Of a stretch of DNA of 64,000 nucleotides, positions 27,648 to 62,159 are shown in pieces (within the stretch, counting starts at the first letter, position 1; each line of letters begins with the position of its first letter). Source of the DNA: Eledone cirrhosa (lineage: Eukaryota); contig OZ024741.1 of the NCBI GenBank assembly GCA_964016885.1, positions 261,578,001 to 261,642,000 on the forward strand, given 5' to 3'. The position numbers and the translations under genes are program-made. The notes under the pieces were generated by a model that saw only the letters and a program-made list of their open reading frames with translations, had not been told where the DNA came from and did not search any database.

Positions 27648-27684
27648 CTAGCAGAAAACCGCCCACCGGGTGGTTTTCTGCTAG
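27648..27684. repeat. 37-nt inverted repeat/hairpin ending in CTAG (also at 34763-34799, 48223-48259, 61683-61719)
   Basis: CTAGCAGAAAACCGCCC-ACC-GGGTGGTTTTCTGCTAG: 17-bp arms, 3-nt loop, and one G-T mismatch in this copy. Confidence 0.95.
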
Positions 27685-27699
27685 TCTATATATATAAAA

Positions 27700-28091
27700 C
27701 TGAGGATGTCTGTCTGTGTGTGAGTTTGAATCCCTAAAACTCGAGAACCACCCAACCGACTGTTTTCAAACTTTACACATGTAATACTTACGTTTCAGGG
27801 AGTGTTCTGAGCAAACAATATTTCAAATTTTCAATGCCCTAGGGACCACATTAGGCGATTTAGCGATCTCTCTCTATAATTCTTAGTCTTTCTCTTTTTA
27901 GATAGATACATACATATAACGTCGTGCCCTTATAATATCTGTCTGTATGTCTGGCTGTCTGCATTACGTCACTTCCCTGAGGATGTCTGTCTGTGTGTGT
28001 GTCTGTGAGTTTGAATCCCTAAAATGCGAGAAGTACCCAACCGATTTTTTTCAAACTTTACATGTGTATTACTTATGTTTCAGGGAGTGTT
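27700..28091 (+). repeat. Diverged ~110-bp direct repeat pair within the island (27700-27806 and 27977-28091)
   Basis: Both copies run CTGAGGATGTCTGTCTGTGTG...GAGTTTGAATCCCTAAAA...CCCAACCGA...TTCAAACTTTACA...TTTCAGGGAGTGTT, with multiple substitutions and different GT-tract lengths. Confidence 0.92.
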
Positions 28092-28560
28092 TGTTATGCA
28101 CATAAAATTCAACCTTTTGATCTGGTGTTTCGACTTACGAGTGTTTCGACTTACGAGTGTTTCGACTTACGAGTGTTTTGACTTACGAGTGTTTTGACTT
28201 ACGGTATTTCTGCTTACGAGTGTTTCGACTTACGAGTGTTACGAGTGTTCTGACTACGAGTGTTTCGACTTACGAGTGTTTCGACTTACGAGTGTTTCGA
28301 CTTATGAGTGTTTTGACTTACGGTGTTTCGGCTTACGAGTGTTTCGACTTACGAGTGTTTTGACTTACTGGTGTTTTGACATACGAGTGTTACGATACGA
28401 GTGTTTCGACTTACGAGTGTTCTGACTTACGAGTGTTCTGACTTACGAGTGATCTAACTTACGAGTGTTCTGACTTACGAGTGTTCTGACTTACGAGTGT
28501 TCCGACTTACGAGTGTTTCGGCTCACGAGTGTTTCGGCTTACGAGTGTTTCGACTTACGA

Positions 28561-28629
28561 AAATAACAAATAGACGCGGTTTCAAATCTCTATGCTTTTC
28601 AAATTCAGTACATTAATCTTTATTTATAC
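28561..28629 (+). repeat. 69-bp AT-rich insert, copy 5
   Basis: Same sequence and insertion point. Confidence 0.95.
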
Positions 28630-30519
28630 GTTTCGCTTTACGAGTGTTTCGACTTACGAGTGTTTTGACTTACGAGTGTTTCGGCTTACGAGTGTTTTGA
28701 CTTACGAGTGTTTTGACTTACATGTGTTTCGACTTACGCGTGTTTCGACTTACGAGTGTTTCGACTTGCGAGTGTTTCGACTACGGGTGTTTCGACTTAC
28801 GAATGTTTTGACTTACGGATGTTTTGACTTACGGGTGTTTCGGCTTACCAGTGTTTCGACTTACGAGTGTTCTGACTTACGAGTGTTCTGACTTAGAGTG
28901 TTCCGACTTACGAGTGTTTCGACTTAAGAGTGTTTCGGATTACGAGTGCTTCGACTTACGAGTGTTTCGGCTAACGAGTGTTTCGACTTACGAGTGTTCT
29001 GACTACGAGTGTTCTGACTTACGGGTGTTCTGACTTACGAGTGTTCCGACTTACGAGTGTTCGGCTTTCGAGTGTTTCGACTTACGAGTGTTTCGGGTTA
29101 CGAGTGTTTCGACTTACGAATGTTTTCGCTTACGAGTGTTTCCGCTTACGAGTGTTTCGACTTACGAGTGTTTCGACTTACGAGTGTTTTGACTTACGGT
29201 TGTTCGGCTTGCGAGTGTTTCGACATACGACTGTTTTGACTTACGGGCGTTTCGACTTACGGGTGTTTCGACTTACGAGTGTTTCGACTTACGAGTGTTC
29301 TGACTTACGAGTGTTCTGACTTGCGAGTGTTCCGACTTACGAGTGTTTCGGCTTACGAGTGTTTCGACATACGAGTGTTTTGACTTACGGATGTTTCAAC
29401 TTACGGGTGTTTCGACTTACGAGTGTTTCGTCTTACGAGTGTTCTGACTACGAGTGTTCTGACTTACGGGTGCTCTGACTTACGAGTGTTTCGACTTACG
29501 AGTGTTTCGACTTACGAGTGTTTCGGCTTACGAGTGTTTCGACTTACGAGTGTTTTGACTTACGAATGTTTTGCCTTACGGGTGTTCCGGTTTACGAGTG
29601 TTTCGACTTACGAGTATTCTGACTTACGAGTGTTCCGACTTACGGGTGTTTCGACTTACGAGTGTTTCGACATACGAGTGTTCCGACCTATGAGGGTTTC
29701 GGCTTACTGGTGTTCCGACTTACGAGTATTTTCGGCTGACGAGTATTTCGAGTTACGAGTGTTTTGACTTACGATTGTTTCGGCTTACGAGTGGTTTGAC
29801 TTACGAGTGTTTCGGCTTACGAGTGGTTTGACTTACGAGTGTTCTGACTACGAGTGTTCTGACTTACGAGTGTTTCGGCTTATGAGTGTTTCGACTTACG
29901 AGTGTTTCGGTTTATGAGTGTTTCGACTTACGAGTGTTTCGGCTTACGAGTGTTTCGACTTACGAGTGTTTCGACTTACGGGTGTTTCGACTTACGAGTG
30001 TTTCGTCTACGAGTGTTTCGACTTACGAGTGTTTCGGCTTACGAGTGTTTCGACATACGGGTGTTCGACTTACGGTGTTTCGGCTTACGAGTGTTTCGAC
30101 TTACGAGTGTTCTGACTTACGAGTGTTCTGACTTATGAGTGTTCTGACTTACGAGTGTTCCGACTTACGAGTGTTTCGGCTTACGAGTGTTTCGGCTTAC
30201 GAGTGTTTCGACTTACGAGTGTTTCGACTTACGAGTGTTTCGACTTATGAGTGTTTTGACTTACGGTGTTTCGGCTTACGAGTGTTTCGACTTACGAGTG
30301 TTTTGACTTACTGGTGTTTTGACATACGAGTGTTTCGATACGAGTGTTTCGACTTACGAGTGTTCTGACTTACGAGTGTTCTGACTTACGAGTGTTCTGA
30401 CTTACGAGTGTTCTAACTTACGAGTGTTCTGACTTACGAGTGTTCTGACTTACGAGTGTTCCAACTTACGAGTGTTTCGGCTCACGAGTGTTTCGGCTTA
30501 CGAGTGTTTCGACTTACGA

Positions 30520-30588
30520 AAATAACAAATAGACGCGGTTTCAAATCTCTATGCTTTTCAAATTCAGTACATTAATCTTTATTTATAC
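30520..30588 (+). repeat. 69-bp AT-rich insert, copy 6
   Basis: Same sequence and insertion point. Confidence 0.95.
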
Positions 30589-33420
30589 GTTTCGCTTTAC
30601 GAGTGTTTCGACTTACGAGTGTTTCGACTTACGAGTGTTTCGGCTTACGAGTGTTTTGACTTACGAGTGTTTTGACTTACATGTGTTTCGACTTACGCGT
30701 GTTTCGATTTACGAGTGTTTCGACTTGCGAGTGTTTCGACTACGGGTGTTTCGACTTACGAATGTTTTGACTTACGGATGTTTTGACTTACGGGTGTTTC
30801 GTCTTACGAGTGTTTCGACTTACGAGTGTTCTGACTTACGAGTGTTCTGACTTACGAGTGTTCCGACTTACGAGTGTTTCGACTTAAGAGTGTTTCGGAT
30901 TACGAGTGCTTCGACTTACAAGTGTTTCGGCTAACGAGTGTTTCGACTTACGAGTGTTCTGACTACGAGTGTTCTGACTTACGGGTGTTCTGACTTACGA
31001 GTGTTCCGACTTACGTGTGTTTCGGCTTTCGAGTGTTTCGACTTACGAGTGTTTCGGGTTACGAGTGTTTCGACTTACGAATGTTTTCGCTTACGAGTGT
31101 TTCCGCTTACGAGTGTTTCGACTTACGAGTGTTTCGGCTTGCGAGTGTTTCGACATACGAGTGTTTTGACTTACGGGCGTTTCGACTTACGGGTGTTTCG
31201 ACTTACGAGTGTTTCGACTTACGAGTGTTCTGACTTACGAGTGTTCTGACTTGCGAGTGTTCCGACTTACGAGTGTTTCGGCTTACGAGTGTTTCGACAT
31301 ACGAGTGTTTTGACTTATGGATGTTTCAACTTACGGGTGTTTCGACTTACGAGTGTTTCGACTTACGAGTGTTCTGACTACGAGTGTTCTGACTTACGGG
31401 TGCTCTGACTTACGAGTGTTTCGACTTACGAGTGTTTCGACTTACGAGTGTTTCGGCTTACGAGTGTTTCGACTTACGAGTGTTTTGACTTACGAATGTT
31501 TTGCCTTACGGGTGTTCCGGTTTACGAGTGTTTCGACTTACGAGTATTCTGACTTACGAGTGTTCCGACTTACGGGTGTTTCGACTTACGAGTGTTTCGA
31601 CATACGAGTGTTCCGACCTATGAGGGTTTCGGCTTACTGGTGTTCCGACTTACGAGTATTTTCGGCTGACGAGTGTTTCGAGTTACGAGTGTTTTGACTT
31701 ACGATTGTTTCGGCTTACGAGTGTTTCGGCTTACGAGTGTTTTAATTTACGAGTGTTTTGACTTACGGGTGTTTCGACTTACGCGTGTTTCGACTTACGA
31801 GTGTTTCGACTTACGAGTGTTTCGGCTTATGAGTGTTTCGAATTACGAGTGTTTTGACTTACGGGTGTTTTGACATACGAGTGTTTCGGTACGAGTGTTC
31901 TGACTTACGAGTGTTCTGACTTACGAGTGTTCTGACTTACGAGTGTTCTGACTAACGGGGTTCTGACTTACGAGTGTTGCGACTTACGAGTGTTTCGGCT
32001 ATGAGTGTTTTGACTTACGTGTGTTTCGACTTACGGGTGTTTCGACTTACGAGTGTTTCGACTTACGTGTGTTTCCGCTTACGAGTGTTTCGGCTTACGA
32101 GTGTTTCGAATTACGAGTGTTTTGGCTTACGAATGTTTTGACTTACGGGTGTTTCGGTGTACGAGTGTTTCGACTTAAGGATGTTTCGACTTACGAGTGT
32201 TTCGACTTACGAGTGTTTCGACTTACGAGTGTTTCGACTTACGAGTGTTTTGGCTTACGAATGTTTTGACTTACGGGTGTTTCGACTTACGGGTGTTTCG
32301 GCTTACGAGTGTTTCGACTTACGAGTGTTTTGACTTACGAGTGTTCTGACTTACGAGTGTTCTGACTTACGAGTGTTCCGACTTACGAGTGTTTCGGCTT
32401 ACGAGTGTTTCGGCTTACGAGTGTTTCGGCTTATGAGTGTTTTGACTTACGAGTGTTCTGACTACGAGTGTTCTGACTTACGGGTGTTCTGACTTACGAG
32501 TGTTCCGACTTACGAGTGTTTCGGCTAATGAGTGTTTCGACTTACGGGCGTTTCGACTTACGGGTGTTTCGACTTACGAGTGTTTCGACTTACGGGTGTT
32601 TCGACTTACGAGTGTTTTGAATTACGATTGTTTCGGCTTACGAGTGTTTCGACTTACGAGTATTTCGACTTACGAGTTTTTTTACTTACGGTGTTTCGGC
32701 TTACGCGTGTTTCGACTTATGAGTGTTCTGATTTACGGATGTTTCGACATACGAGTGTTTCGACTTACGGTGTTTCGACTTACGAGTGTTTCGACTTACG
32801 AGTGTTTCGACTTACGGGTGTTTCGACTTACGAGTGTTTCGACTTACGAGTGTTTCGACTTACGGGTGTTTCGGCTTACGAGTGTTTCGACTTACGAGTG
32901 TTCTGACTTACGAGTGTTCCGGCTTACGAGTTTTTCGACTTACGAGTGTTTCGACTTACGAGTGTTTCGGCTTACAAGTGTTTCGGCTTACGAGTGGTTT
33001 GACTTACGAATGTTCTGACTACGAGTGTTCTGTCTTACGAGTGTTTCGACTTACGAGTGTTTCGGCTTATGAGTGTTTCGACTTACGAGTGTTTCGGCTT
33101 ACGAGTGTTTCGACTTACGAGTGTTTCGACTTACGGGTGTTTCGACTTACGAGTGTTTCGACTACGAGTGTTTCGACTTATGAGTGTTTTGACTTACGGT
33201 GTTTCGGCTTACGAGTGTTTCGACTTACGAGTGTTTTGACTTACTGGTGTTTTGACATACGAGTGTTTCGATACGAGTGTTTCGACTTACGAGTGTTCTG
33301 ACTTACGAGTGTTCTGACTTACGAGTGTTCTGACTTACGAGTGTTCTAACTTACGAGTGTTCTGACTTACGAGTGTTCTGACTTACGAGTGTTTCGGCTT
33401 ACGAGTGTTTCGACTTACGA

Positions 33421-33489
33421 AAATAACAAATAGACGCGGTTTCAAATCTCTATGCTTTTCAAATTCAGTACATTAATCTTTATTTATAC
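33421..33489 (+). repeat. 69-bp AT-rich insert, copy 7
   Basis: Same sequence, but the downstream satellite context differs from most copies. Confidence 0.95.
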
Positions 33490-34500
33490 GTTTCGCTTTA
33501 CGAGTGTTCCGGCTTACGCGTCTTTCGACTTACGAGTGTTTCGGCTTATGAGTGTTTCGACTTACGAGTGCTTCGGCTTACGAGTGTTTCGACTTACGAG
33601 TGTTCTGACTTACGACTGTTCTGACTTACGAATGTTCCGACTTACGAGTCTTTCGACTTACGAATGTTTTGGCTTACGAGTGTTTCGGCTTATGAGTGTT
33701 TCGACTTACGAGTGTTTCGACATACGAGTGTTTTGACTTACGGGTGTTTCGACTTACGGGTGTTTCGACTTAAGAGTGTTTCGACTTACGAGCGCTTCGA
33801 CTTACGAGTGTTCTGACTTACGAGTGTTCCGACTTACGAGTGTTTCGGCTTACGAGTGTTTCGACTTACGAGTGTTCCGGCTTACGCGTGTTTCGACTTA
33901 CGAGTGTTTCGGCTTATGAGTGTTTCGTCTTACGAGTGCTTCGGCTTACGAGTGTTTCGACTTACGAGTGTTTCGGCTTACGAGTGTTTCGACTTACGAA
34001 TGTTTTGGCTTACGAGTGTTTCGGCTTACGAGTGTTTCGACTTACGGGTGTTTCGACTTACGGGTGTTCCGTCTTAAGAGTGATTCGACTTACGAGCGCT
34101 TCGACTTACGAGTGTTCCGACTTACGAGTGTTTCTGCTTACGAGTGTTTCGACTTACGAATGTTTCGACTTACGAGTGTTTTGACTTACGGTTGTTTCGG
34201 CTTACGACTGTTTCGACTTACGAGTGTTTCGGCTTACGAATGTTTTGACTTACGAGTATTTCGGCTTACAAGTGTTTCGACTTACGACTGTTTTGACTTA
34301 CGGTTGTTTCGGCTTACGACTGTTTCGACTTACGAGTGTTTCGGCTTACGAGTGTTTCGGCTTACGAGTGTTTCGACTTACGAGTGTTTGGGCTTACGAG
34401 TGTTTCAGTGTTTCGGCTTACGTGTGTTTCGACTTACGAGTGTTTCGATTTACGAGTGTTTCGGCTTACGAGTGTTTCGGCTTACGAGTGTTTCGGCTTA

Positions 34501-35239
34501 TTATATATAAACGTTTCTATTTCCATCGTTTTATCGAAAACGTTTATATATTTCCATCGTTATATCATAACGTTTATATTTCCGTCACTAATCTCTTTTT
34601 CTCCTTTTTCGTTTTAACATATATTTATTTCAAAGATTTCACCGTATAGATAACATATATATTTATACATGCATAAAAGACACACTGAGAGACGGTGAAC
34701 ATGTGGTGCCAAAAACATTTCTAATCCAAATCTCAACAATATCAGTATATACACTAGATTTGCTAGCAGGAAACCGCCCACCGGGTGGTCTTCTGCTAGT
34801 CTATATATATAAAACTGAGGATGTCTGTCTGTGTGTGAGTTTGAATCCCTAAAACTCGAGAACCACCCAACCGACTGTTTTCAAACTTTACACATGTAAT
34901 ACTTACGTTTCAGGGAGTGTTCTGAGCAAACAATATTTCAAATTTTCAATGCCCTAGGGACCACATTAGGCGATTTAGCGATCTCTCTCTATAATTCTTA
35001 GTCTTTCTCTTTTTAGATAGATACATACATATAACGTCGTGCCCTTATAATATCTGTCTGTATGTCTGGCTGTCTGCATTACGTCACTTCCCTGAGGATG
35101 TCTGTCTGTGTGTGTGTCTGTGAGTTTGAATCCCTAAAATGCGAGAAGTACCCAACCGATTTTTTTCAAACTTTACATGTGTATTACTTATGTTTCAGGG
35201 AGTGTTTGTTATGCACATAAAATTCAACCTTTTGATCTG
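34501..35239 (+). mobile_element. 739-bp island, copy 2: putative Helitron head-to-tail junction
   Basis: Near-identical to 27386-28124 at offset 7,115. CTAG|TC junction at 34799/34800. Confidence 0.7.
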
Positions 35240-36431
35240 GTGTTTCGACTTACGAGTGTTTCGACTTACGAGTGTTTCGACTTACGAGTGTTTTGACTTA
35301 CGAGTGTTTTGACTTACGGTATTTCTGCTTACGAGTGTTTCGACTTACGAGTGTTCTGACCTACGAGTGTTCTGACTTACGAGTTTTTCGACTTACGAGT
35401 GTTTTGACTTACGGGTGTTTCGACTTGCGAGTGTTTCGAGTTACGAGTGTTTCGAGTTACGAGTGTTTCGACTTACGAGTATTTTGACTTACGAATGTTC
35501 TGACTTACGGGTGTTTCGGCTTCCGAGTGTTTCGACTTACGAGTGTTATAACTTGCGGGTCTTTCGATTTACGCGTGTTTTGACTTACGGGCGTTTCGAC
35601 TTAGGAGTGTTTCGACTACGAATGTTCCGACATACGAGTGTTTCGACTTACGAGTGTTTCGACTTACGAGTGTTCTGACTTACGAGTGTTCCGGCTTACG
35701 AGTTTTTCGACTTACGAGTGTTTCGACTTACGAGTGTTTCGACTTACGAGTGTTTCGGCTTACGAGTGGTTTGACTTACGAGTGTTCTGACTACGAGTGT
35801 TCTGACTTACGAGTGTTTCGGTTTATGAGTGTTTCGACTTACGAGTGTTTCGGCTTACGAGTGTTTCGACTTACGAGTGTTTCGACTTACGGGTGTTTCG
35901 ACTTACGAGTGTTTCGTCTACGAGTGTTTCGACTTACGAGTGTTTCGGCTTACGAGTGTTTCGACATACGGATGTTTCGACTTACGGTGTTTCGGCTTAC
36001 GAGTGTTTCGACTTACGAGTGTTCTGACTTACGAGTGTTCTGACTTATGAGTGTTCTGACTTACGAGTGTTCCGACTTACGAGTGTTTCGGCTTACGAGT
36101 GTTTCGGCTTACGAGTGTTTCGACTTACGAGTGTTTCGACTTACGAGTGTTTCGACTTATGAGTGTTTTGAGTTACGGTGTTTCGGCTTACGAGTGTTTC
36201 GACTTACGAGTGTTTTGACTTACTGGTGTTTTGACATACGAGTGTTTCGATACGAGTGTTTCGACTTACGAGTGTTCTGACTTACGAGTGTTCTGACTTA
36301 CGAGTGTTCTGACTTACGAGTGATCTAACTTACGAGTGTTCTGACTTACGAGTGTTCTGACTTACGAGTGTTCTGACTTACGAGTGTTTCGGCTCACGAG
36401 TGTTTCGGCTTACGAGTGTTTCGACTTACGA

Positions 36432-36500
36432 AAATAACAAATAGACGCGGTTTCAAATCTCTATGCTTTTCAAATTCAGTACATTAATCTTTATTTATAC
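36432..36500 (+). repeat. 69-bp AT-rich insert, copy 8
   Basis: Same sequence and insertion point. Confidence 0.95.
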
Positions 36501-38249
36501 GTTTCGCTTTACGAGTGTTTCGACTTACGAGTGTTTCGACTTACGAGTGTTTCGGCTTACGAGTGTTTTGACTTACGAGTGTTTTGACTTACATGTTTTT
36601 CGACTTACGCGTGTTTCGACTTACGAGTGTTTCGACTTGCGAGTGTTTCGACTACGGGTGTTTCGACTTACGAATGTTTTGACTTACGGATGTTTTGACT
36701 TACGGGTGTTTCGGCTTATGAGTGTTTCGACTTACGAGTGTTCTGACTTACGAGTGTTCTGACTTACGAGTGTTCCGACTTACGAGTGTTTCGACTTAAG
36801 AGTGTTTCGGATTACGAGTGCTTCGACTTACGAGTGTTTCGGCTAACGAGTGTTTCGACTTACGAGTGTTCTGACTACGAGTGTTCTGACTTACGGGTGT
36901 TCTGACTTACGAGTGTTCCGACTTACGAGTGTTCGGCTTTCGAGTGTTTCGACTTACGAGTGTTTCGGGTTACGAGTGTTTCGACTTACGAATGTTTTCG
37001 CTTACGAGTGTTTCCGCTTACGAGTGTTTCGACTTACGAGTGTTTCGACTTACGAGTGTTTTGACTTACGGTTGTTCGGCTTGCGAGTGTTTCGACATAC
37101 GAGCGTTTTGACTTACGGGCGTTTCGACCTACGGGTGTTTCGACTTACGAGTGTTTCGACTTACGAGTGTTCTGACTTACGAGTGTTCTGACTTGCGAGT
37201 GTTCCGACTTACGAGTGTTTCGGCTTACGAGTGTTTCGACTTACGAGTGTTTCGGCTTACGAGTGTTTCGACTTACGAGTGTTTTGACTTACGAATGTTT
37301 TGCCTTACGGGTGTTCCGGTTTACGAGTGTTTCGACTTACGAGTATTCTGACTTACGAGTGTTCCGACTTACGGGTGTTTCGACTTACGAGTGTTTCGAC
37401 ATACGAGTGTTCCGACCTATGAGGGTTTCGGCTTACTGGTGTTCCGACTTACGAGTATTTTCGGCTGACGAGTGTTTCGAGTTACGAGTGTTTTGACTTA
37501 CGATTGTTTCGGCTTACGAGTGGTTTGACTTACGAGTGTTTCGGCTTACGAGTGGTTTGACTTACGAGTGTTCTGACTACGAGTGTTCTGACTTACGAGT
37601 GTTTCGGCTTATGAGTGTTTCGACTTACGAGTGTTTCGGTTTATGAGTGTTTCGACTTACGAGTGTTTCGGCTTACGAGTGTTTCGACCTACGAGTGTTT
37701 CGACTTACGGGTGTTTCGACTTACGAGTGTTTCGTCTACGAGTGTTTCGACTTACGAGTGTTTCGGCTTACGAGTGTTTCGACATACGGGTGTTTCGACT
37801 TACGGTGTTTCGGCTTACGAGTGTTTCGACTTACGAGTGTTCTGACTTACGAGTGTTCTGACTTATGAGTGTTCTGACTTACGAGTGTTCCGACTTACGA
37901 GTGTTTCGGCTTACGAGTGTTTCGGCTTACGAGTGTTTCGACTTACGAGTGTTTCGACTTACGAGTGTTTCGACTTATGAGTGTTTTGACTTACGGTGTT
38001 TCGGCTTACGAGTGTTTCGACTTACGAGTGTTTTGACTTACTGGTGTTTTGACATACGAGTGTTTCGATACGAGTGTTTCGACTTACGAGTGTTCTGACT
38101 TACGAGTGTTCTGACTTACGAGTGTTCTGACTTACGAGTGTTCTAACTTACGAGTGTTCTGACTTACGAGTGTTCTGACTTACGAGTGTTCCAACTTACG
38201 AGTGTTTCGGCTCACGAGTGTTTCGGCTTACGAGTGTTTCGACTTACGA

Positions 38250-38318
38250 AAATAACAAATAGACGCGGTTTCAAATCTCTATGCTTTTCAAATTCAGTAC
38301 ATTAATCTTTATTTATAC
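38250..38318 (+). repeat. 69-bp AT-rich insert, copy 9
   Basis: Same sequence and insertion point. Confidence 0.95.
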
Positions 38319-39599
38319 GTTTCGCTTTATGAGTGTTTCGACTTACGAGTGTTTCGACTTACGAGTGTTTCGGCTTACGAGTGTTTTGACTTACGAGTGT
38401 TTTGACTTACATGTGTTTCGACTTACGCGTGTTTCGACTTACGAGTGTTTCGACTTGCGAGTGTTTCGACTACGGGTGTTTCGACTTACGAATGTTTTGA
38501 CTTACGGATGTTTTGACTTACGGGTGTTTCGGCTTACGAGTGTTTCGACTTACGAGTGTTCTGACTTACGAGTGTTCTGACTTACGAGTGTTCCGACTTA
38601 CGAGTGTTTCGACTTAAGAGTGTTTCGGATTACGAGTGCTTCGACTTACGAGTGTTTCGGCTAACGAGTGTTTCGACTTACGAGTGTTCTGACTACGAGT
38701 GTTCTGACTTACGGATGTTCTGACTTACGAGTGTTCCGACTTACGAGTGTTTCGGCTTTCGAGTGTTTCGACTTACGAGTGTTTCGGGTTACGAGAGTTT
38801 CGACATACGAATGTTTTCGCTTACGAGTGTTTCCGCTTACGAGTGTTTCGACTTACGAGTGTTTCGGCTTGCGAGTGTTTCGACATACGAGTGTTTTGAC
38901 TTACGGGCGTTTTGACTTACGGGTGTTTCGACTTACGAGTGTTTCCACTTACGAGTGTTCTGACTTACGAGTGTTCTGACTTGCGAGTGTTCCGACTTAC
39001 GAGTGTTTCGGCTTACGAGTGTTTCGACATACGAGTGTTTTGACTTACGGATGTTTCAACTTACGGGTGTTTCGACTTACGAGTGTTTCGACTTACGAGT
39101 GTTCTGACTACGAGTGTTCTGACTTACGGGTGCTCTGACTTACGAGTGTTTCGACTTACGAGTGTTTCGACTTACGAGTGTTTCGGCTTACGAGTGTTTC
39201 GACTTACGAGTGTTTTGACTTACGAATGTTTTGCCTTACGGGTGTTCCGGTTTACGAGTGTTTCGACTTACGAGTATTCTGACTTACGAGTGTTCCGACT
39301 TACGGGTGTTTCGACTTACGAGTGTTTCGACATACGAGTGTTCCGACCTATGAGGGTTTCGGCTTACTGGTGTTCCGACTTACGAGTATTTTCGGCTGAC
39401 GAGTGTTTCGAGTTACGAGTGTTTTGACTTACGATTGTTTCGGCTTACGAGTGTTTCGGCTTACGAGTGTTTTGATTTACGAGTGTTTTGACTTACGGGT
39501 GTTTCGACTTACGCGTGTTTCGACTTACGAGTGTTTCGACTTACGAGTGTTTCGGCTTATGAGTGTTTCGAATTACGAGTGTTTTGACTTACGGGTGTT

Positions 39600-40041
39600 T
39601 TGACATACGAGTGTTTCGGTACGAGTGTTCTGACTTACGAGTGTTCTGACTTACGAGTGTTGCGACTTACGAGTGTTTCGGCTATGAGTGTTTTGACTTA
39701 CGTGTGTTTCGACTTACGGGTGTTTCGACTTACGAGTGTTTCGACTTACGTGTGTTTCCGCTTACGAGTGTTTCGGCTTACGAGTGTTTCGAATTACGAG
39801 TGTTTTGACTTACGGGTGTTTTGACATACGAGTGTTTCGGTACGAGTGTTCTGACTTACGAGTGTTCTGACTTACGAGTGTTGCGACATACGAGTGTTTC
39901 GGCTATGAGTGTTTTGACTTACGTGTGTTTCGACTTACGGGTGTTTCGACTTACGAGTGTTTCGACTTACGTGTGTTTCCGCTTACGAGTGTTTCGGCTT
40001 ACGAGTGTTTCGAATTACGAGTGTTTTGGCTTACGAATGTT
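39600..40041 (+). repeat. 221-bp local tandem duplication (recurs at 53060-53501)
   Basis: Near-identical variant strings start at 39600 and 39821, both containing the rare variants TTCGGTACG, GTTGCGAC and GGCTATGAG. Confidence 0.8.
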
Positions 40042-49891: not shown

Positions 49892-49960
49892 AAATAACAA
49901 ATAGACGCGGTTTCAAATCTCTATGCTTTTCAAATTCAGTACATTAATCTTTATTTATAC
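49892..49960 (+). repeat. 69-bp AT-rich insert, copy 11
   Basis: Copy 8 position + 13,460. Confidence 0.95.
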
Positions 49961-51709
49961 GTTTCGCTTTACGAGTGTTTCGACTTACGAGTGTTTCGAC
50001 TTACGAGTGTTTCGGCTTACGAGTGTTTTGACTTACGAGTGTTTTGACTTACATGTTTTTCGACTTACGCGTGTTTCGACTTACGAGTGTTTCGACTTGC
50101 GAGTGTTTCGACTACGGGTGTTTCGACTTACGAATGTTTTGACTTACGGATGTTTTGACTTACGGGTGTTTCGGCTTATGAGTGTTTCGACTTACGAGTG
50201 TTCTGACTTACGAGTGTTCTGACTTACGAGTGTTCCGACTTACGAGTGTTTCGACTTAAGAGTGTTTCGGATTACGAGTGCTTCGACTTACGAGTGTTTC
50301 GGCTAACGAGTGTTTCGACTTACGAGTGTTCTGACTACGAGTGTTCTGACTTACGGGTGTTCTGACTTACGAGTGTTCCGACTTACGAGTGTTCGGCTTT
50401 CGAGTGTTTCGACTTACGAGTGTTTCGGGTTACGAGTGTTTCGACTTACGAATGTTTTCGCTTACGAGTGTTTCCGCTTACGAGTGTTTCGACTTACGAG
50501 TGTTTCGACTTACGAGTGTTTTGACTTACGGTTGTTCGGCTTGCGAGTGTTTCGACATACGAGCGTTTTGACTTACGGGCGTTTCGACCTACGGGTGTTT
50601 CGACTTACGAGTGTTTCGACTTACGAGTGTTCTGACTTACGAGTGTTCTGACTTGCGAGTGTTCCGACTTACGAGTGTTTCGGCTTACGAGTGTTTCGAC
50701 TTACGAGTGTTTCGGCTTACGAGTGTTTCGACTTACGAGTGTTTTGACTTACGAATGTTTTGCCTTACGGGTGTTCCGGTTTACGAGTGTTTCGACTTAC
50801 GAGTATTCTGACTTACGAGTGTTCCGACTTACGGGTGTTTCGACTTACGAGTGTTTCGACATACGAGTGTTCCGACCTATGAGGGTTTCGGCTTACTGGT
50901 GTTCCGACTTACGAGTATTTTCGGCTGACGAGTGTTTCGAGTTACGAGTGTTTTGACTTACGATTGTTTCGGCTTACGAGTGGTTTGACTTACGAGTGTT
51001 TCGGCTTACGAGTGGTTTGACTTACGAGTGTTCTGACTACGAGTGTTCTGACTTACGAGTGTTTCGGCTTATGAGTGTTTCGACTTACGAGTGTTTCGGT
51101 TTATGAGTGTTTCGACTTACGAGTGTTTCGGCTTACGAGTGTTTCGACCTACGAGTGTTTCGACTTACGGGTGTTTCGACTTACGAGTGTTTCGTCTACG
51201 AGTGTTTCGACTTACGAGTGTTTCGGCTTACGAGTGTTTCGACATACGGGTGTTTCGACTTACGGTGTTTCGGCTTACGAGTGTTTCGACTTACGAGTGT
51301 TCTGACTTACGAGTGTTCTGACTTATGAGTGTTCTGACTTACGAGTGTTCCGACTTACGAGTGTTTCGGCTTACGAGTGTTTCGGCTTACGAGTGTTTCG
51401 ACTTACGAGTGTTTCGACTTACGAGTGTTTCGACTTATGAGTGTTTTGACTTACGGTGTTTCGGCTTACGAGTGTTTCGACTTACGAGTGTTTTGACTTA
51501 CTGGTGTTTTGACATACGAGTGTTTCGATACGAGTGTTTCGACTTACGAGTGTTCTGACTTACGAGTGTTCTGACTTACGAGTGTTCTGACTTACGAGTG
51601 TTCTAACTTACGAGTGTTCTGACTTACGAGTGTTCTGACTTACGAGTGTTCCAACTTACGAGTGTTTCGGCTCACGAGTGTTTCGGCTTACGAGTGTTTC
51701 GACTTACGA

Positions 51710-51778
51710 AAATAACAAATAGACGCGGTTTCAAATCTCTATGCTTTTCAAATTCAGTACATTAATCTTTATTTATAC
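51710..51778 (+). repeat. 69-bp AT-rich insert, copy 12
   Basis: Copy 9 position + 13,460. Confidence 0.95.
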
Positions 51779-54700
51779 GTTTCGCTTTATGAGTGTTTCG
51801 ACTTACGAGTGTTTCGACTTACGAGTGTTTCGGCTTACGAGTGTTTTGACTTACGAGTGTTTTGACTTACATGTGTTTCGACTTACGCGTGTTTCGACTT
51901 ACGAGTGTTTCGACTTGCGAGTGTTTCGACTACGGGTGTTTCGACTTACGAATGTTTTGACTTACGGATGTTTTGACTTACGGGTGTTTCGGCTTACGAG
52001 TGTTTCGACTTACGAGTGTTCTGACTTACGAGTGTTCTGACTTACGAGTGTTCCGACTTACGAGTGTTTCGACTTAAGAGTGTTTCGGATTACGAGTGCT
52101 TCGACTTACGAGTGTTTCGGCTAACGAGTGTTTCGACTTACGAGTGTTCTGACTACGAGTGTTCTGACTTACGGATGTTCTGACTTACGAGTGTTCCGAC
52201 TTACGAGTGTTTCGGCTTTCGAGTGTTTCGACTTACGAGTGTTTCGGGTTACGAGAGTTTCGACATACGAATGTTTTCGCTTACGAGTGTTTCCGCTTAC
52301 GAGTGTTTCGACTTACGAGTGTTTCGGCTTGCGAGTGTTTCGACATACGAGTGTTTTGACTTACGGGCGTTTTGACTTACGGGTGTTTCGACTTACGAGT
52401 GTTTCCACTTACGAGTGTTCTGACTTACGAGTGTTCTGACTTGCGAGTGTTCCGACTTACGAGTGTTTCGGCTTACGAGTGTTTCGACATACGAGTGTTT
52501 TGACTTACGGATGTTTCAACTTACGGGTGTTTCGACTTACGAGTGTTTCGACTTACGAGTGTTCTGACTACGAGTGTTCTGACTTACGGGTGCTCTGACT
52601 TACGAGTGTTTCGACTTACGAGTGTTTCGACTTACGAGTGTTTCGGCTTACGAGTGTTTCGACTTACGAGTGTTTTGACTTACGAATGTTTTGCCTTACG
52701 GGTGTTCCGGTTTACGAGTGTTTCGACTTACGAGTATTCTGACTTACGAGTGTTCCGACTTACGGGTGTTTCGACTTACGAGTGTTTCGACATACGAGTG
52801 TTCCGACCTATGAGGGTTTCGGCTTACTGGTGTTCCGACTTACGAGTATTTTCGGCTGACGAGTGTTTCGAGTTACGAGTGTTTTGACTTACGATTGTTT
52901 CGGCTTACGAGTGTTTCGGCTTACGAGTGTTTTGATTTACGAGTGTTTTGACTTACGGGTGTTTCGACTTACGCGTGTTTCGACTTACGAGTGTTTCGAC
53001 TTACGAGTGTTTCGGCTTATGAGTGTTTCGAATTACGAGTGTTTTGACTTACGGGTGTTTTGACATACGAGTGTTTCGGTACGAGTGTTCTGACTTACGA
53101 GTGTTCTGACTTACGAGTGTTGCGACTTACGAGTGTTTCGGCTATGAGTGTTTTGACTTACGTGTGTTTCGACTTACGGGTGTTTCGACTTACGAGTGTT
53201 TCGACTTACGTGTGTTTCCGCTTACGAGTGTTTCGGCTTACGAGTGTTTCGAATTACGAGTGTTTTGACTTACGGGTGTTTTGACATACGAGTGTTTCGG
53301 TACGAGTGTTCTGACTTACGAGTGTTCTGACTTACGAGTGTTGCGACATACGAGTGTTTCGGCTATGAGTGTTTTGACTTACGTGTGTTTCGACTTACGG
53401 GTGTTTCGACTTACGAGTGTTTCGACTTACGTGTGTTTCCGCTTACGAGTGTTTCGGCTTACGAGTGTTTCGAATTACGAGTGTTTTGGCTTACGAATGT
53501 TTTGACTTACGGGTGTTTCGGTGTACGAGTGTTTCGACTTAAGGATGTTTCGACTTACGAGTGTTTCGACTTACGAGTGTTTCGAGTTACGAGTGTTTCG
53601 ACTTACGATTGTTTTGGCTTACGAATGTTTTGACTTACGGGTGTTTCGACTTACGGGTGTTTCGGCTTACGAGTGTTTTGACTTACGAGTGTTCTGACTA
53701 CGAGTGTTCTGACTTACGGGTGTTCTGACTTACGAGTGTTCCGACTTACGAGTGTTTCGGCTAATGAGTGTTTCGACTTACGGGCGTTTCGACTTACGGG
53801 TGTTTCGACTTACGAGTGTTTCGACTTACGGGTGTTTCGACTTACGAGTGTTTTGAATTACGATTGTTTCGGCTTACGAGTGTTTCGACTTACGAGTATT
53901 TCGACTTACGAGTTTTTTTACTTACGGTGTTTCGGCTTACGAGTGTTTCGACTTATGAGTGTTCTGATTTACGGATGTTTCGACATACGAGTGTTTCGAC
54001 TTACGGTGTTTCGACTTACGAGTGTTTCGACTTGCGAGTGTTTCGACTACGGGTGTTTCGACTTACGAATGTTTTGACTTACGGATGTTTTGACTTACGG
54101 GTGTTTCGGCTAACGAGTGTTTCGACTTACGAGTGTTCTGACTACGAGTGTTCTGACTTACGGGTGTTCTGACTTACGAGTGTTCCGACTTACGAGTGTT
54201 TCGGCTTTCGAGTGTTTCGACTTACGAATGTTTTGCCTTACGGGTGTTCCGGTTTACGAGTGTTTCGACTTACGAGTATTCTGACTTACGAGTGTTCTGA
54301 CTTACGAGTGTTCCGACTTACGAGTGTTTCGGCTTTCGAGTGTTTCGACTTACGAGTGTTTCGGGTTACGAGTGTTTCGACTTACGAATGTTTTCGCTTA
54401 CGAGTGTTTCCGCTTACGAGTGTTTCGACTTACGAGTGTTTCGACTTACGAGTGTTTTGACTTACGGTTTTTCGGCTTGCGAGTGTTTCGACATACGAGT
54501 GTTTTGACTTACGGGCGTTTCGACTTACGGGTGTTTCGACTTACGAGTGTTTCGACTTACGAGTGTTCTGACTTACGAGTGTTCTGACTTGCGAGTGTTC
54601 CGACTTACGAGTGTTTCGGCTTACGAGTGTTTCGACATACGAGTGTTTTGACTTACGGATGTTTCAACTTACGGGTGTTTCGACTTACGAGTGTTTCGAC

Positions 54701-57700
54701 TTACGAGTGTTCTGACTACGAGTGTTCTGACTTACGGGTGCTCTGACTTACGAGTGTTTCGACTTACGAGTGTTTCGACTTACGAGTGTTTCGGCTTACG
54801 AGTGTTTCGACTTACGAGTGTTTTGACTTACGAATGTTTTGCCTTACGGGTGTTCCGGTTTACGAGTGTTTCGACTTACGAGTATTCTGACTTACGAGTG
54901 TTCCGACTTACGGGTGTTTCGACTTACGAGTGTTTCGACATACGAGTGTTCCGACCTATGAGGGTTTCGGCTTACTGGTGTTCCGACTTACGAGTATTTT
55001 CGGCTGACGAGTGTTTCGAGTTACGAGTGTTTTGACTTACGATTGTTTCGGCTTACGAGTGTTTCGGCTTACGAGTGTTTTGATTTACGAGTGTTTTGAC
55101 TTACGGGTGTTTCGACTTACGCGTGTTTCGACATACGAGTGTTTCGACTTACGAGTGTTTCGGCTTATGAGTGTTTCGAATTACGAGTGTTTTGACTTAC
55201 GGGTGTTTTGACATACGAGTGTTTCGGTACGAGTGTTCTGACTTACGAGTGTTCTGACTTACGAGTGTTCTGACTAACGGGTGTTCTGACTTACGAGTGT
55301 TGCGACTTACGAGTGTTTCGGCTATGAGTGTTTTGACTTACGTGTGTTTCGACTTACGGGTGTTTCGACTTACGAGTGTTTCGACTTACGTGTGTTTCCG
55401 CTTACGAGTGTTTCGGCTTACGAGTGTTTCGAATTACGAGTGTTTTGGCTTACGAATGTTTTGACTTACGGGTGTTTCGGTGTACGAGTGTTTCGACTTA
55501 AGGATGTTTCGACTTACGAGTGTTTTGACTTACGAGTGTTCTGACTTACGAGTGTTCTGACTTACGAGTGTTCCGACTTACGAGTGTTCCGACTTACGAG
55601 TGTTTCGGCTTACGAGTGTTTCGGCTTACGAGTGTTTCGGCTTATGAGTGTTTTGACTTACGAGTGTTCTGACTACGAGTGTTCTGACTTACGGGTGTTC
55701 TGACTTACGAGTGTTCCGACTTACGAGTGTTTCGGCTAATGAGTGTTTCGACTTACGGGCGTTTCGACTTACGGGTGTTTCGACTTACGAGTGTTTCGAC
55801 TTACGGGTGTTTCGACTTACGAGTGTTTTGAATTACGATTGTTTCGGCTTACGAGTGTTTCGACTTACGAGTATTTCGACTTACGAGTTTTTTTACTTAC
55901 GGTGTTTCGGCTTACGAGTGTTTCGACTTATGAGTGTTCTGATTTACGGATGTTTCGACATACGAGTGTTTTGACTTACGGTGTTTCGGCTTACGAGTGT
56001 TTCGACTTACGAGTGTTTCGACTTACGGGTGTTTCGACTTACGAGTGTTTCGACTTACGAGTGTTTCGACTTACGGGTGTTTCGGCTTACGAGTGTTTCG
56101 ACTTACGAGTGTTCTGACTTACGAGTGTTCCGGCTTACGAGTTTTTCGACTTACGAGTGTTTCGACTTACGAGTGTTTCGGCTTACAAGTGTTTCGGCTT
56201 ACGAGTGGTTTGACTTACGAGTGTTCTGACTACGAGTGTTCTGTCTTACGAGTGTTTCGACTTACGAGTGTTTCGGCTTATGAGTGTTTCGACTTACGAG
56301 TGTTTCGGCTTACGAGTGTTTCGACTTACGAGTGTTTCGACTTACGGGTGTTTCGACTTACGAGTGTTTCGACTACGAGTGTTTCGACTTACGAGTGTTT
56401 CGGCTTACGAGTGTTTCGACTTATGGGTGTTTCGACTTACGAGTGTTTTTACTTACGGTGTTTCGGCTTACGAGTGTTTCGACATACGAGTGTTTTGACT
56501 TACGGGTGTTTCGACTTACGAGTGTTTCGACTTACGAATGTTTTGACTTACGGGTGTTTCGGCTTACGAGTGTTTCGATTTATGAGTGTTTCGGCTTACG
56601 AGTGTTTCGACTTACTAATGTTTTTACTTACGAGTGTTTCGGCGTACGAGAGTTTTGACTTACGAGTGTTTCTACTTACGAGTGTTTCGACTTACGAGTG
56701 TTTTGACTTACGAATGTTTTGACTTACGGGTGTTTCGGCTTACGAGTGTTTCGACTTACGAGTCTTTCGGCTTACGAGTGTTTCGACTTACCAATGTTTT
56801 TACTTACGAGTGTTTCGGCGTACGAGTGTTTCGACTTACGAGTGTTTCGACTTACGGGTGTTTTGACTTACGGGTGTTTCGGCTTACGAGTATTTTTGGC
56901 TTACGAGTGTTTCGACTTACGAGTGTTTTGACTTACGAGTGTTCTAATTTACGGATGTTTCGACATACGAGTGTTTTGACTTACGAGTGTTTCGACTTAC
57001 GACTGTTTCGACTTACGAGTGTTTCGGCTTACGAGTGGTTTGACTTACGACTGTTCTGACTACGAGTGTTTTGACTTACGAGTGTTTCGGCTTATGAGTG
57101 TTTCGACTTACGAGTGTTTCGGCTTATGAGTGTTTCGACTTACGAGTGTTTCGGTTTACGAGTGTTTCGACTTACGAGTGTTTCGACTTACGGGTGTTTC
57201 GACTTACGAGTGTTTCGACTACGAGTGTTTCGACTTACGAGTGTTTCGGCTTACGAGTGTTTCGACATACGGGTGTTTCGACTTACGATGTTTCGGCTTA
57301 CGAGTGTTTCGACTTACGAGTGTTCTGACTTACGAGTGTTCTAATTTACGGATGTTTCGACATACGAGTGTTTTGACTTACGAGTGTTTCGACTTACGAG
57401 TGTTTCGACTTACGAGTGTTCCGACTTACGAGTGTTTCGGCTTACGAGTGTTTCGGCTTACGAGTGTTTCGACTTACGAGTGTTTCGACTTACGAGTGTT
57501 TCGACTTACGAGTGTTTCGACTTACGAGTGTTTTGAGATACGGTGTTTCGGCTTACGAGTGTTTCGACTTACGAGTGTTTCGACTTACGAGTGTTTTGAT
57601 ATACGGTGTTTCGGCTTACGAGTGTTTCGACATACGAGTGTTTTGACTTACGGGTGTTTCGACTTTCGGGTGTTTCGACTTAAGAGTGTTTCGACTTACG

Positions 57701-60340
57701 AGCGCTTCGACTTACGAGTGTTCTGACTTACCAGTGTTCCGACTTACGAGTGTTTCTGCTTACGAGTGTTTCGACTTACGAGTGTTTCGACTTACGAGTG
57801 TTTCGGCGTACGAGTGTTTTGACTTACGAGTGTTTCGACTTACGAGTGTTTCGACTTACGAGTGCTTTGACTTACGAATGTTTTGACTTACTTCGACTTA
57901 CGAGTGATCTGACTTACGAGTGTTCCTACTTACGAGTGTTTCGACTTACGAGTGTTTCGACTTGCGAGTGTTTCGACTTACGAGTGTTTCGACTTACGAG
58001 TGTTCTGACTTACGAGTGTTCTGACTTACGAGTGTTCCGACTTACGAGTGTTTCGGCTTACGAGTGTTTCGACTTACGAGTGTTCCGGCTTACGCGTCTT
58101 TCGACATACGAGTTTTTCGGCTTATGAGTGTTTCAACTTACGAGTGCTGCGGCTTACGAGTGTTTCGACTTACGAGTGTTCTGACTTACGAGTGTTCTGA
58201 CTTACGAATGTTCCGACTTACGAGTCTTTCGACTTACGAATGTTTTGGCTTACGAGTGTTTCGGCTTATGAGTGTTTCGACTTACGAGTGTTTCGACATA
58301 CGAGTGTTTTGACTTACGGATGTTTCGACTTACGGGTGTTTCGACTTAAGAGTGTTTCGACTTACGAGCGCTTCGACTCACGAGTGTTCTGACTTACGAG
58401 TGTTCTGACTTACGAATGTTCCGACTTACGAGTCTTTCGACTTACGAATGTTTTGGCTTACGAGTGTTTCGGCTTATGAGTGTTCCGACTTACGGGTGTT
58501 TCGACTTACGAGTGTTTCGACATTCGAGTGTTCCGACCTATGAGGGTTTCGGCTTACTGGTGTTCCGACTTACGAGTATTTTCGGCTGACGAGTGTTTCG
58601 AGTTACGAGTGTTTTGACTTACGATTGTTTCGGCTTACGAGTGTTTCGGCTTACGAGTGTTTTAATTTACGAGTGTTTTGACTTACGGGTGTTTCGACTT
58701 ACGCGTGTTTCGACTTACGAGTGTTTCGACTTACGAGTGTTTCGGCTTATGAGTGTTTCGAATTACGAGTGTTTTGACTTACGGGTGTTTTGACATACGA
58801 GTGTTTCGGTACGAGTGTTCTGACTTACGAGTGTTCTGACTTACGAGTGTTCTGACTTACGAGTGTTCTGACTAACGGGGTTCTGACTTACGAGTGTTGC
58901 GACTTACGAGTGTTTCGGCTATGAGTGTTTTGACTTACGTGTGTTTCGACTTACGGGTGTTTCGACTTACGAGTGTTTCGACTTACGTGTGTTTCCGCTT
59001 ACGAGTGTTTCGGCTTACGAGTGTTTCGAATTACGAGTGTTTTGGCTTACGAATGTTTTGACTTACGGGTGTTTCGGTGTACGAGTGTTTCGACTTAAGG
59101 ATGTTTCGACTTACGAGTGTTTCGACTTACGAGTGTTTCGACTTACGAGTGTTTCGACTTACGAGTGTTTTGGCTTACGAATGTTTTGACTTACGGGTGT
59201 TTCGACTTACGGGTGTTTCGGCTTACGAGTGTTTCGACTTACGAGTGTTTTGACTTACGAGTGTTCTGACTTACGAGTGTTCTGACTTACGAGTGTTCCG
59301 ACTTACGAGTGTTTCGGCTTACGAGTGTTTCGGCTTACGAGTGTTTCGGCTTATGAGTGTTTTGACTTACGAGTGTTCTGACTACGAGTGTTCTGACTTA
59401 CGGGTGTTCTGACTTACGAGTGTTCCGACTTACGAGTGTTTCGGCTAATGAGTGTTTCGACTTACGGGCGTTTCGACTTACGGGTGTTTCGACTTACGAG
59501 TGTTTCGACTTACGGGTGTTTCGACTTACGAGTGTTTTGAATTACGATTGTTTCGGCTTACGAGTGTTTCGACTTACGAGTATTTCGACTTACGAGTTTT
59601 TTTACTTACGGTGTTTCGGCTTACGCGTGTTTCGACTTATGAGTGTTCTGATTTACGGATGTTTCGACATACGAGTGTTTCGACTTACGGTGTTTCGACT
59701 TACGAGTGTTTCGACTTACGAGTGTTTCGACTTACGGGTGTTTCGACTTACGAGTGTTTCGACTTACGAGTGTTTCGACTTACGGGTGTTTCGGCTTACG
59801 AGTGTTTCGACTTACGAGTGTTCTGACTTACGAGTGTTCCGGCTTACGAGTTTTTCGACTTACGAGTGTTTCGACTTACGAGTGTTTCGGCTTACAAGTG
59901 TTTCGGCTTACGAGTGGTTTGACTTACGAATGTTCTGACTACGAGTGTTCTGTCTTACGAGTGTTTCGACTTACGAGTGTTTCGGCTTACGAGTGTTTCG
60001 ACTTACGAGTGTTTCGGCTTACGAGTGTTTCGACTTACGAGTGTTTCGACTTACGGGTGTTTCGACTTACGAGTGTTTCGACTACGAGTGTTTCGACTTA
60101 TGAGTGTTTTGACTTACGGTGTTTCGGCTTACGAGTGTTTCGACTTACGAGTGTTTTGACTTACTGGTGTTTTGACATACGAGTGTTTCGATACGAGTGT
60201 TTCGACTTACGAGTGTTCTGACTTACGAGTGTTCTGACTTACGAGTGTTCTGACTTACGAGTGTTCTAACTTACGAGTGTTCTGACTTACGAGTGTTCTG
60301 ACTTACGAGTGTTTCGGCTTACGAGTGTTTCGACTTACGA

Positions 60341-60409
60341 AAATAACAAATAGACGCGGTTTCAAATCTCTATGCTTTTCAAATTCAGTACATTAATCTT
60401 TATTTATAC
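60341..60409 (+). repeat. 69-bp AT-rich insert, copy 13
   Basis: Copy 10 position + 13,460. Confidence 0.95.
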
Positions 60410-61420
60410 GTTTCGCTTTACGAGTGTTCCGGCTTACGCGTCTTTCGACTTACGAGTGTTTCGGCTTATGAGTGTTTCGACTTACGAGTGCTTCGGCTTA
60501 CGAGTGTTTCGACTTACGAGTGTTCTGACTTACGACTGTTCTGACTTACGAATGTTCCGACTTACGAGTCTTTCGACTTACGAATGTTTTGGCTTACGAG
60601 TGTTTCGGCTTATGAGTGTTTCGACTTACGAGTGTTTCGACATACGAGTGTTTTGACTTACGGGTGTTTCGACTTACGGGTGTTTCGACTTAAGAGTGTT
60701 TCGACTTACGAGCGCTTCGACTTACGAGTGTTCTGACTTACGAGTGTTCCGACTTACGAGTGTTTCGGCTTACGAGTGTTTCGACTTACGAGTGTTCCGG
60801 CTTACGCGTGTTTCGACTTACGAGTGTTTCGGCTTATGAGTGTTTCGTCTTACGAGTGCTTCGGCTTACGAGTGTTTCGACTTACGAGTGTTTCGGCTTA
60901 CGAGTGTTTCGACTTACGAATGTTTTGGCTTACGAGTGTTTCGGCTTACGAGTGTTTCGACTTACGGGTGTTTCGACTTACGGGTGTTCCGTCTTAAGAG
61001 TGATTCGACTTACGAGCGCTTCGACTTACGAGTGTTCCGACTTACGAGTGTTTCTGCTTACGAGTGTTTCGACTTACGAATGTTTCGACTTACGAGTGTT
61101 TTGACTTACGGTTGTTTCGGCTTACGACTGTTTCGACTTACGAGTGTTTCGGCTTACGAATGTTTTGACTTACGAGTATTTCGGCTTACAAGTGTTTCGA
61201 CTTACGACTGTTTTGACTTACGGTTGTTTCGGCTTACGACTGTTTCGACTTACGAGTGTTTCGGCTTACGAGTGTTTCGGCTTACGAGTGTTTCGACTTA
61301 CGAGTGTTTGGGCTTACGAGTGTTTCAGTGTTTCGGCTTACGTGTGTTTCGACTGACGAGTGTTTCGATTTACGAGTGTTTCGGCTTACGAGTGTTTCGG
61401 CTTACGAGTGTTTCGGCTTA

Positions 61421-62159
61421 TTATATATAAACGTTTCTATTTCCATCGTTTTATCGAAAACGTTTATATATTTCCATCGTTATATCATAACGTTTATATT
61501 TCCGTCACTAATCTCTTTTTCTCCTTTTTCGTTTTAACATATATTTATTTCAAAGATTTCACCGTATAGATAACATATATATTTATACATGCATAAAAGA
61601 CACACTGAGAGACGGTGAACATGTGGTGCCAAAAACATTTCTAATCCAAATCTCAACAATATCAGTATATACACTAGATTTGCTAGCAGGAAACCGCCCA
61701 CCGGGTGGTCTTCTGCTAGTCTATATATATAAAACTGAGGATGTCTGTCTGTGTGTGAGTTTGAATCCCTAAAACTCGAGAACCACCCAACCGACTGTTT
61801 TCAAACTTTACACATGTAATACTTACGTTTCAGGGAGTGTTCTGAGCAAACAATATTTCAAATTTTCAATGCCCTAGGGACCACATTAGGCGATTTAGCG
61901 ATCTCTCTCTATAATTCTTAGTCTTTCTCTTTTTAGATAGATACATACATATAACGTCGTGCCCTTATAATATCTGTCTGTATGTCTGGCTGTCTGCATT
62001 ACGTCACTTCCCTGAGGATGTCTGTCTGTGTGTGTGTCTGTGAGTTTGAATCCCTAAAATGCGAGAAGTACCCAACCGATTTTTTTCAAACTTTACATGT
62101 GTATTACTTATGTTTCAGGGAGTGTTTGTTATGCACATAAAATTCAACCTTTTGATCTG
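61421..62159 (+). mobile_element. 739-bp island, copy 4: putative Helitron head-to-tail junction
   Basis: Matches copy 3 at offset 13,460. CTAG|TC junction at 61719/61720. Confidence 0.7.

Follow-up and report, generated by a model that had tools for sequence, protein, structure and literature searches.

A megabase-scale 16-bp satellite of Eledone cirrhosa with a probable origin inside a Helitron that likely inserts at the starts of other Helitrons

How do Helitron ends come to lie, repeatedly and in the same inverted order, within a satellite array? This question is raised by a 64,000-nt stretch of the Eledone cirrhosa genome (the window; C2:261.578-261.642 Mb of a 3.0-Gb genome), in which a 16-bp satellite is interrupted by four islands of 735 bp and by 14 spacers of 67–74 bp. 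A sequence-only reading of the window had noticed that in each island a hairpin ending in CTAG is directly followed by a TC start, and had proposed that the satellite is cargo of tandem rolling-circle elements running from one TC to the next CTAG. Here, each island was found to consist of two parts, the tail of one Helitron family (B) and, directly adjoining it, the first 437 bp of an older element from another family (A). We consider it very probable that the islands were inherited from one B insertion at the start of an A element, and that the satellite grew from a three-copy 16-mer of B and was spread with the islands by recombination. The broader proposal is that B is a site-specific Helitron, the RepHel of which integrates at the 5′ nick site of many Helitron families, and that one such insertion, through three 16-bp repeats in the 3′ region of the parent, seeded a satellite of ~6.9 Mb; this we regard as probable.

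The islands and their two Helitron families

The hairpin-CTAG abuts TCTATATATATAAAACTGAGGATGTCTG exactly at all four positions (27684/5, 34799/800, 48259/60 and 61719/20). These joints account for all four instances of CTAGTC in the window, and every one of them has the same orientation. The satellite, the islands and one of the spacers are located as follows:

1..64000, + strand: 16-bp satellite with the consensus TTCGACTTACGAGTGT (TRF period 16, 4005 copies, 93.6% coverage)
27387..27684, + strand: left half of island copy 1, the 3′ end of a family B Helitron (298 bp), equivalent to 10688-11001 of an 11-kb RepHel-coding copy
27648..27684, + strand: 37-bp palindromic terminator of family B, with CTAG at both feet
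27685..28121, + strand: right half of island copy 1, the first 437 bp of the non-autonomous Helitron family A, truncated and joined to satellite
34502..35236, + strand: island copy 2, B tail to 34799 and A head from 34800, with 3 substitutions relative to copy 1, all in the B half
47962..48696, + strand: island copy 3, with the three variants of copy 2
61422..62156, + strand: island copy 4, with the three variants of copy 2
28563..28629, + strand: 67-bp spacer, one of 14 in the window, 98.6% identical to 10565-10635 of the B element, directly 5′ of its 16-mer seed

Both island halves are real Helitron termini which also occur in dispersed copies, as had been supposed. The left half belongs to an 11-kb RepHel-coding family with many deletion derivatives. 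Its tail has 877 exact matches in the genome and one variant of its head has 1023; this head starts with TC, is distinct from that of A and is preceded by a host A in 21 of the 23 copies in which it could be placed. Following the B head led to RepHel-coding copies at C1:146.585-146.595 Mb and C2:86.75 Mb, both of which contain PF14214 and PF05970. The latter copy is 11,001 bp long with a 1458-residue frame that includes both domains; its last 314 bases correspond to the island left half, and it covers at least 91% of 22 of 23 short B copies. Every coding copy read carries stops, shifts or deletions (0 intact), and the longest frame lacks four residues of the tyrosine motif found in another copy. 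When compared by tblastn with ten other RepHel loci, the B protein exhibited 27–32% identity over long alignments.

As in Helitron1/HLE1 elements, B starts with TC after A, ends in a hairpin-CTAG before T (28/28 intact tails) and has a RepHel-coding parent sharing both ends. No target-site duplication was evident in the flanks examined, a comparison made without an empty site. Neither family fits the Helentron/HINE type (DINE-1, Cg_HINE), with its subterminal inverted repeats and TT target: both start with TC after A and end with CTAG before T.

Family B carries approximately three 16-mers just 5′ of its tail. All 13 fetched single dispersed copies exhibited the order spacer, 1.5–3.5 16-mers, island left half and palindrome, with the 3′ end directly following the seed, and a strict pattern matched the seed in five of 11 coding B loci. 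The satellite unit is therefore internal to family B, and in this respect the idea of the satellite as Helitron cargo was correct; the proposed rolling-circle units of 7–13 kb, however, are not supported (see below).

The first-island hairpin has a 17-bp stem in which even the terminal CTAG is base-paired (−17.9 kcal/mol, z −6.9; 0/200 shuffles equally stable), and the hairpins of islands 2–4 have two stem changes and reach −11.1 kcal/mol. The palindrome being a stand-alone miniature inverted-repeat transposable element can be ruled out, as it terminates longer elements with a common start. At five loci on C1 (L097, L099, L102, L107 and L110) the 37-bp palindrome has outward-facing Helitron starts on both sides, and some short B derivatives run into it from the other side and yet border on a start; the symmetric B end seems to be usable both ways. 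The coding element contains, at position 10046, an inner hairpin end with a start-like piece fused to it (11/11 genome-wide matches), which suggests that an earlier B end was bypassed and the element extended by the seed-bearing segment. The region 3800-3900 of coding locus L293, 5′ of the RepHel frame, contains a reading frame with a QQTNGTDCG-like stretch, which is reminiscent of cysteine proteases.

The right half of the islands belongs to family A, a non-autonomous Helitron of 0.4–1.4 kb. A 29-base exact pattern of its head (preceding G excluded) yielded 1237 matches, a count that includes joints in the array which read CTAT, and a host A precedes the head in 99 of the 100 matches listed. 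Within 1.5 kb, 18 of 30 fetched copies end in a different hairpin-CTAG followed by T. Altogether, 29 distinct A 3′ ends with a hairpin and CTRR before a host T were collected, so that A has the start after host A and the 3′ end before host T of a Helitron1/HLE1 element. None of the 30 fetched copies contained the 16-mer. In turn, A's own 3′ end was found neither in the window nor in 40 array stretches, and its right-half sequence had no match in the 11-kb coding B element. The earlier reading had therefore paired the head of A with the tail of B, and the elements of 7–13 kb it had delimited have mismatched ends. It had also suggested looking for an autonomous RepHel element with these termini. 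The B tail has such a coding parent; at ten RepHel loci with long frames that were examined (of 150 scored) the ends of neither A nor B were shared, with four having a 3′ hairpin similar, not identical, to that of A. At 27977-28121 of the window the A head repeats its own first ~150 bp internally.

Family B at the starts of other Helitrons

The joint of B and A is not restricted to the array. It has 679 exact matches, of which the 100 listed are scattered along C1, and in 13 of 20 fetched joints A continues to its own 3′ end. Among the first 30 of the 877 B tails, 28 keep the CTAG, and in all 28 a Helitron-like start, of several families, comes next (starts were recognized by a simple custom pattern). 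Searching from the B head instead, the palindrome was reached within 1.5 kb at 16 of 30 loci, and a start came next in 16/16, once after two extra letters. Nine of 11 coding B loci end directly before a start, the other two being cut short. As a control, the similar tail of an older family (2751 matches) was followed by T in all 23 intact cases, by TC in two and by start-like sequence in none; a start was likewise next in 0/29 of the A tails. The older family, with a similar stem and then host T, rules out the fully paired stem alone as the cause of the fusion. As family B lies almost always directly in front of other Helitrons, it likely inserts there.

The order of events is indicated by sequence divergence. 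In 18 pairs with both parts aligned, B differed by 0.7% and the partner by 6.5% from consensus, i.e., the attached A heads are approximately nine times more diverged than B; solo A copies (24 of 30 passed the filter) differed by 4.4%. Pairwise differences amounted to 11% among partners and 1.5% among B copies, and the nearest sampled relative of each partner is 2–14% away. Partners come from many families, among them B itself and one that codes for RepHel. Because the attached A heads are far more diverged, the A|TC boundary of resident Helitrons is the likely insertion site of B. This bond appears plausible as a target by analogy with the Helraiser transposase, which, according to the accessible parts of the source, introduces a left-end nick into the plus strand and is able to cleave the joint of right and left terminal sequences (RTS-LTS) in vitro (PMC5876387).

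Some observations speak against such targeting. The distance of A from its consensus is inflated by subfamily structure, and the distances of partner and B are weakly correlated (rho 0.30; the pairs are not independent). No empty site, i.e., a partner without B, was seen: at locus L122 the reads of public runs X1-X4 were swamped by repeats (15 of 162 joints shown, 0 skipping B), and at a second locus (L187; runs X3, X4, X8 and X9) the flank itself is repeated. The small-share runs X1-X3 did not serve as evidence on species. The weak correlation would also fit an alternative without any start targeting: B and its partner would be mobilized together as a read-through composite, or partners would insert after the CTAG of B. 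Read-through of the terminator was shown for Helraiser (PMC4778049, in part), and B itself looks read-through-extended at its inner hairpin end. We nevertheless consider this alternative rather unlikely: a composite does not account well for partners from so many families, which differ far more from each other than the B copies do and have their nearest sampled relatives 2–14% away, and if partners had come in after B, they would be the younger part of the pair and not the older.

The openly readable literature (subscription journals and supplements being outside this scope) yielded no description of a preference for Helitron starts throughout a family, nor do the accessible portions of PMC5148889, PMC13085455, PMC13286980, PMC12001565 and PMC11934779 contain one. 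Other RepHel-coding elements whose 3′ end immediately precedes a Helitron-like start are located at C4:22.21 Mb, C10:54.86 Mb and C27:15.45 Mb. The habit of ending at a start may not be confined to family B.

The satellite array and its duplication blocks

The array, of which the ends were read and the interior was sampled, extends over approximately C2:254.735-261.669 Mb (~6.9 Mb). This position (255–262 Mb of a 416-Mb contig) is compatible with a centromeric satellite. Its two commonest monomers (609 and 302 of 2475 pieces) are the two seed variants, and its left edge opens with 181 bp that match, at 91.7%, the B sequence located 5′ of the seed. The first 27 kb of the window are free of junctions, as had been pointed out, and contain four of the 14 spacers. 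The join of A head and satellite has 105 exact matches, the 100 listed all lying at C2:256.6-261.6 Mb, and a longer version of this pattern was found 16/16 times within the array (exact patterns only); five further islands are known beyond the listed joins. Dispersed elements consisting of an A head and a 16-mer array between host A and T, as the rolling-circle proposal would predict, did not occur among the joins listed, none of which lay outside this array. The confinement of the listed joins to one array points to one origin. On the opposite strand, 24 of them lie at C2:258.91-259.00 Mb, which corresponds to an inversion within the array. In contigs of public run X4, possibly from the assembly's own sample, the join had a depth of ~300, compared with 8–9 for exact single pieces, so that an assembly error is unlikely.

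Two smaller arrays were encountered. A 4-kb array of satellite and spacers at C2:240.963-240.967 Mb (minus strand) starts in (TA)n and ends in a B tail followed by a longer A head, which has the same diagnostic variants and extends past base 437. It is likely a sister of the uncut state, and possibly an intermediate or a moved copy. An array of 96 kb at C1:279.297-279.393 Mb consists of the same satellite and spacers, abuts two unrelated satellites and has edges without Helitron ends.

The derivation of the array from the B seed also has observations on the debit side. The left edge lacks a precise TC, and at the right edge (261.669 Mb) the last island is followed by 306 bp of satellite, with which the array ends, and not by an A tail; the array is therefore not neatly bounded by one element. 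The 96-kb array on C1 and the 4-kb array 14 Mb away imply that blocks moved as well. Moreover, monomers are ~6% from their consensus (non-CpG sites), compared with ~2% from the family consensus for the island halves. Either a greater age than that of the young B burst or a higher mutation rate of the satellite may account for this, and the direction from seed to array therefore rests on flank order, not on dating. The same divergence would be expected if the satellite predated B, an ancestor of which captured a short piece, and the array later gained B|A pieces by insertion or gene conversion. Capture of flanking DNA is described for Helitrons (PMC4778049) and both scenarios are discussed for oyster elements (PMC7492417), each in the parts accessible to us. 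However, the flanks of the seed are Helitron-like and in native order (the spacer is preceded by a start-like piece, and the tail has a relative in the older 2751-copy family), the spacer is present in every array sampled, the main array itself starts with B sequence, and much of the monomer spread is concentrated in three or four columns, as expected of few early amplified variants. An older satellite is therefore unlikely in our view.

How the joints were multiplied was addressed by a breakpoint analysis of 114 kb around the window (resolution ~200 bp). This revealed 12 near-identical blocks at 11 lags. None of them ends at a joint; their ends are 0.46–4.9 kb or more away. Two of the blocks lie in the window:

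31537..64000, continuing to ~66605, + strand: recent tandem duplication of 13,460 bp (99.9% identity, 2.6 copies)
15783..21326, + strand: tandem duplication of 2,726 bp in junction-free satellite (99.5%)

The 13,460-bp block begins 3.3 kb before a joint and ends 4.9 kb after one, in satellite on both sides, and identity begins at ~31537, close to the 31560 given by the sequence-only reading, which had correctly remarked that the periodicity does not start at a junction. Its spacings from joint to joint (7,115, 13,460 and 13,460) and its satellite content of more than 85% (86.6%, 92.7% and 92.7%) were also confirmed. Over the larger region, consecutive joints are 43,259, 7,115, 13,460, 13,460, 11,851, 9,822 and 6,467 apart. 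Joint-free satellite also holds blocks of 2.7 and 5 kb at 99.5–99.8%. Joints with a broken end, reading CTAT, are found in the array in 63 of 64 cases, many of them in tandem runs of 2.8–4 kb. This pattern fits unequal exchange or repair-driven duplication; circle amplification driven by the host may also have played a part, but would not be directed by Helitron ends.

The rolling-circle proposal, in which the stretches from TC to the next CTAG are satellite-filled non-autonomous Helitrons copied head to tail by RepHel, would explain the precise CTAG|TC joints, as in Helraiser circles (PMC4778049, in part), and the one orientation of all joints in the window. RepHel-coding DNA is abundant (3704 candidates in the genome), and since Helraiser needs its left end and not strictly its right end (PMC5876387, accessible parts), initiation at an A head with termination at a B tail would in principle be conceivable. 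Nevertheless, this explanation is highly unlikely, as the ends belong to two families, no such element occurs outside the array among the matches listed, 63 joints lack the CTAG, blocks end away from joints and equally young ones exist where no joint is present, and units 1 and 2 are alike for only ~560 bp past the TC. The spread of one junction fragment by unequal exchange, which the earlier reading had retained as an alternative, is the better fit.

At C20:3.5-5.2 Mb, C27:13-15.5 Mb and on C19 and C16, many near-identical RepHel matches lie ~100–170 kb apart, which suggests very large tandem duplications carrying a Helitron.

Proposed origin and comparison with known systems

For the preferred origin, by B insertion and growth of its seed, the following course can be envisaged. 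The B RepHel would nick the boundary of host A and TC of a resident Helitron, the same bond that is nicked to start transposition, and use this boundary as target, resulting in the order host A, B, TC-partner. In one such B|A pair the seed would have expanded through slippage and unequal exchange. Out-of-register exchanges could then have copied its left flank (the spacer) and its right flank (the tail and A head) into the array, of which blocks of 2–13 kb would subsequently have been duplicated irrespective of Helitron ends.

If this is true, a Helitron integrating at the starts of its relatives would be a natural tool for studying the target choice of RepHel and a possible basis for site-directed insertion. 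Genomic CTAG|TC joints are often taken as footprints of rolling-circle concatemers; as hundreds of them likely originate from targeted insertion here, caution is advisable. The locus also offers a traceable birth of a satellite, with the seed, the parent element, both flanks and a possible 4-kb intermediate in one genome.

The comparisons which follow draw on the accessible parts of the cited papers. Satellites derived from internal tandem repeats of Helitron or Helentron elements are described for DINE-TR1/154TR of Drosophila and for Cg_HINE and Cg170 of oyster (PMC7492417, PMC12628747). As in these systems, a short array inside a rolling-circle element is also present as long stand-alone arrays, some of them attached to parts of the element. 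However, the carriers of the DINE and Cg_HINE repeats are mostly non-autonomous Helentrons with TT targets, whereas here a canonical TC...CTAG family, the parent of which codes for RepHel, is the carrier, its seed amounts to no more than approximately three 16-mers, and the sequences flanking the seed on either side recur in the ~6.9-Mb array.

Family B shares with Helraiser (Helitron1/HLE1; PMC4778049, PMC5876387, PMC11417382) the 5′-TC, the 3′ hairpin-CTAG, insertion between A and T, Rep and PIF1 helicase, and deletion derivatives with both ends. It differs in that Helraiser inserts at AT in AT-rich DNA without clustering at the donor site, whereas another Helitron nearly always begins at the T that follows B, and in that the B stem pairs the terminal CTAG. 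A single precedent for the joint is provided by maize r1, where two dissimilar Helitrons lie head to tail with a CTAG|TC joint, which was explained by consecutive insertion; one of two models places the insertion at the AT composed of host A and the T of the resident element (Du et al., 2008, PMC2267711). There, the order of insertion in this one case was left unresolved, whereas here a family with 877 exact tail matches is arranged in this way as a rule, and the order follows from the age asymmetry.

Tandem centromeric Helitron arrays have been attributed to rolling-circle replication (Xiong et al., 2016, as cited in PMC12628747 and PMC5148889). Like these, the array described here contains head-to-tail joints within a large tandem array; unlike these, which repeat the 5′ part of one element, often with a single 3′ end, it contains a two-family joint copied passively within satellite blocks. 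Dimers of transposable elements which arise through insertion-site preference have been described as a substrate for satellites (McGurk and Barbash, 2018, PMC5932611). The double insertion at one site followed by expansion through unequal exchange is common to both, but Helitrons do not occur in the accessible text of that paper (0 occurrences), and here an internal 16-mer was expanded, not the dimer. That satellites can originate from internal repeats of rolling-circle elements is thus already known from the accessible parts of PMC7492417 and PMC12628747; what E. cirrhosa likely adds is a Helitron-born satellite together with a Helitron that targets Helitrons.

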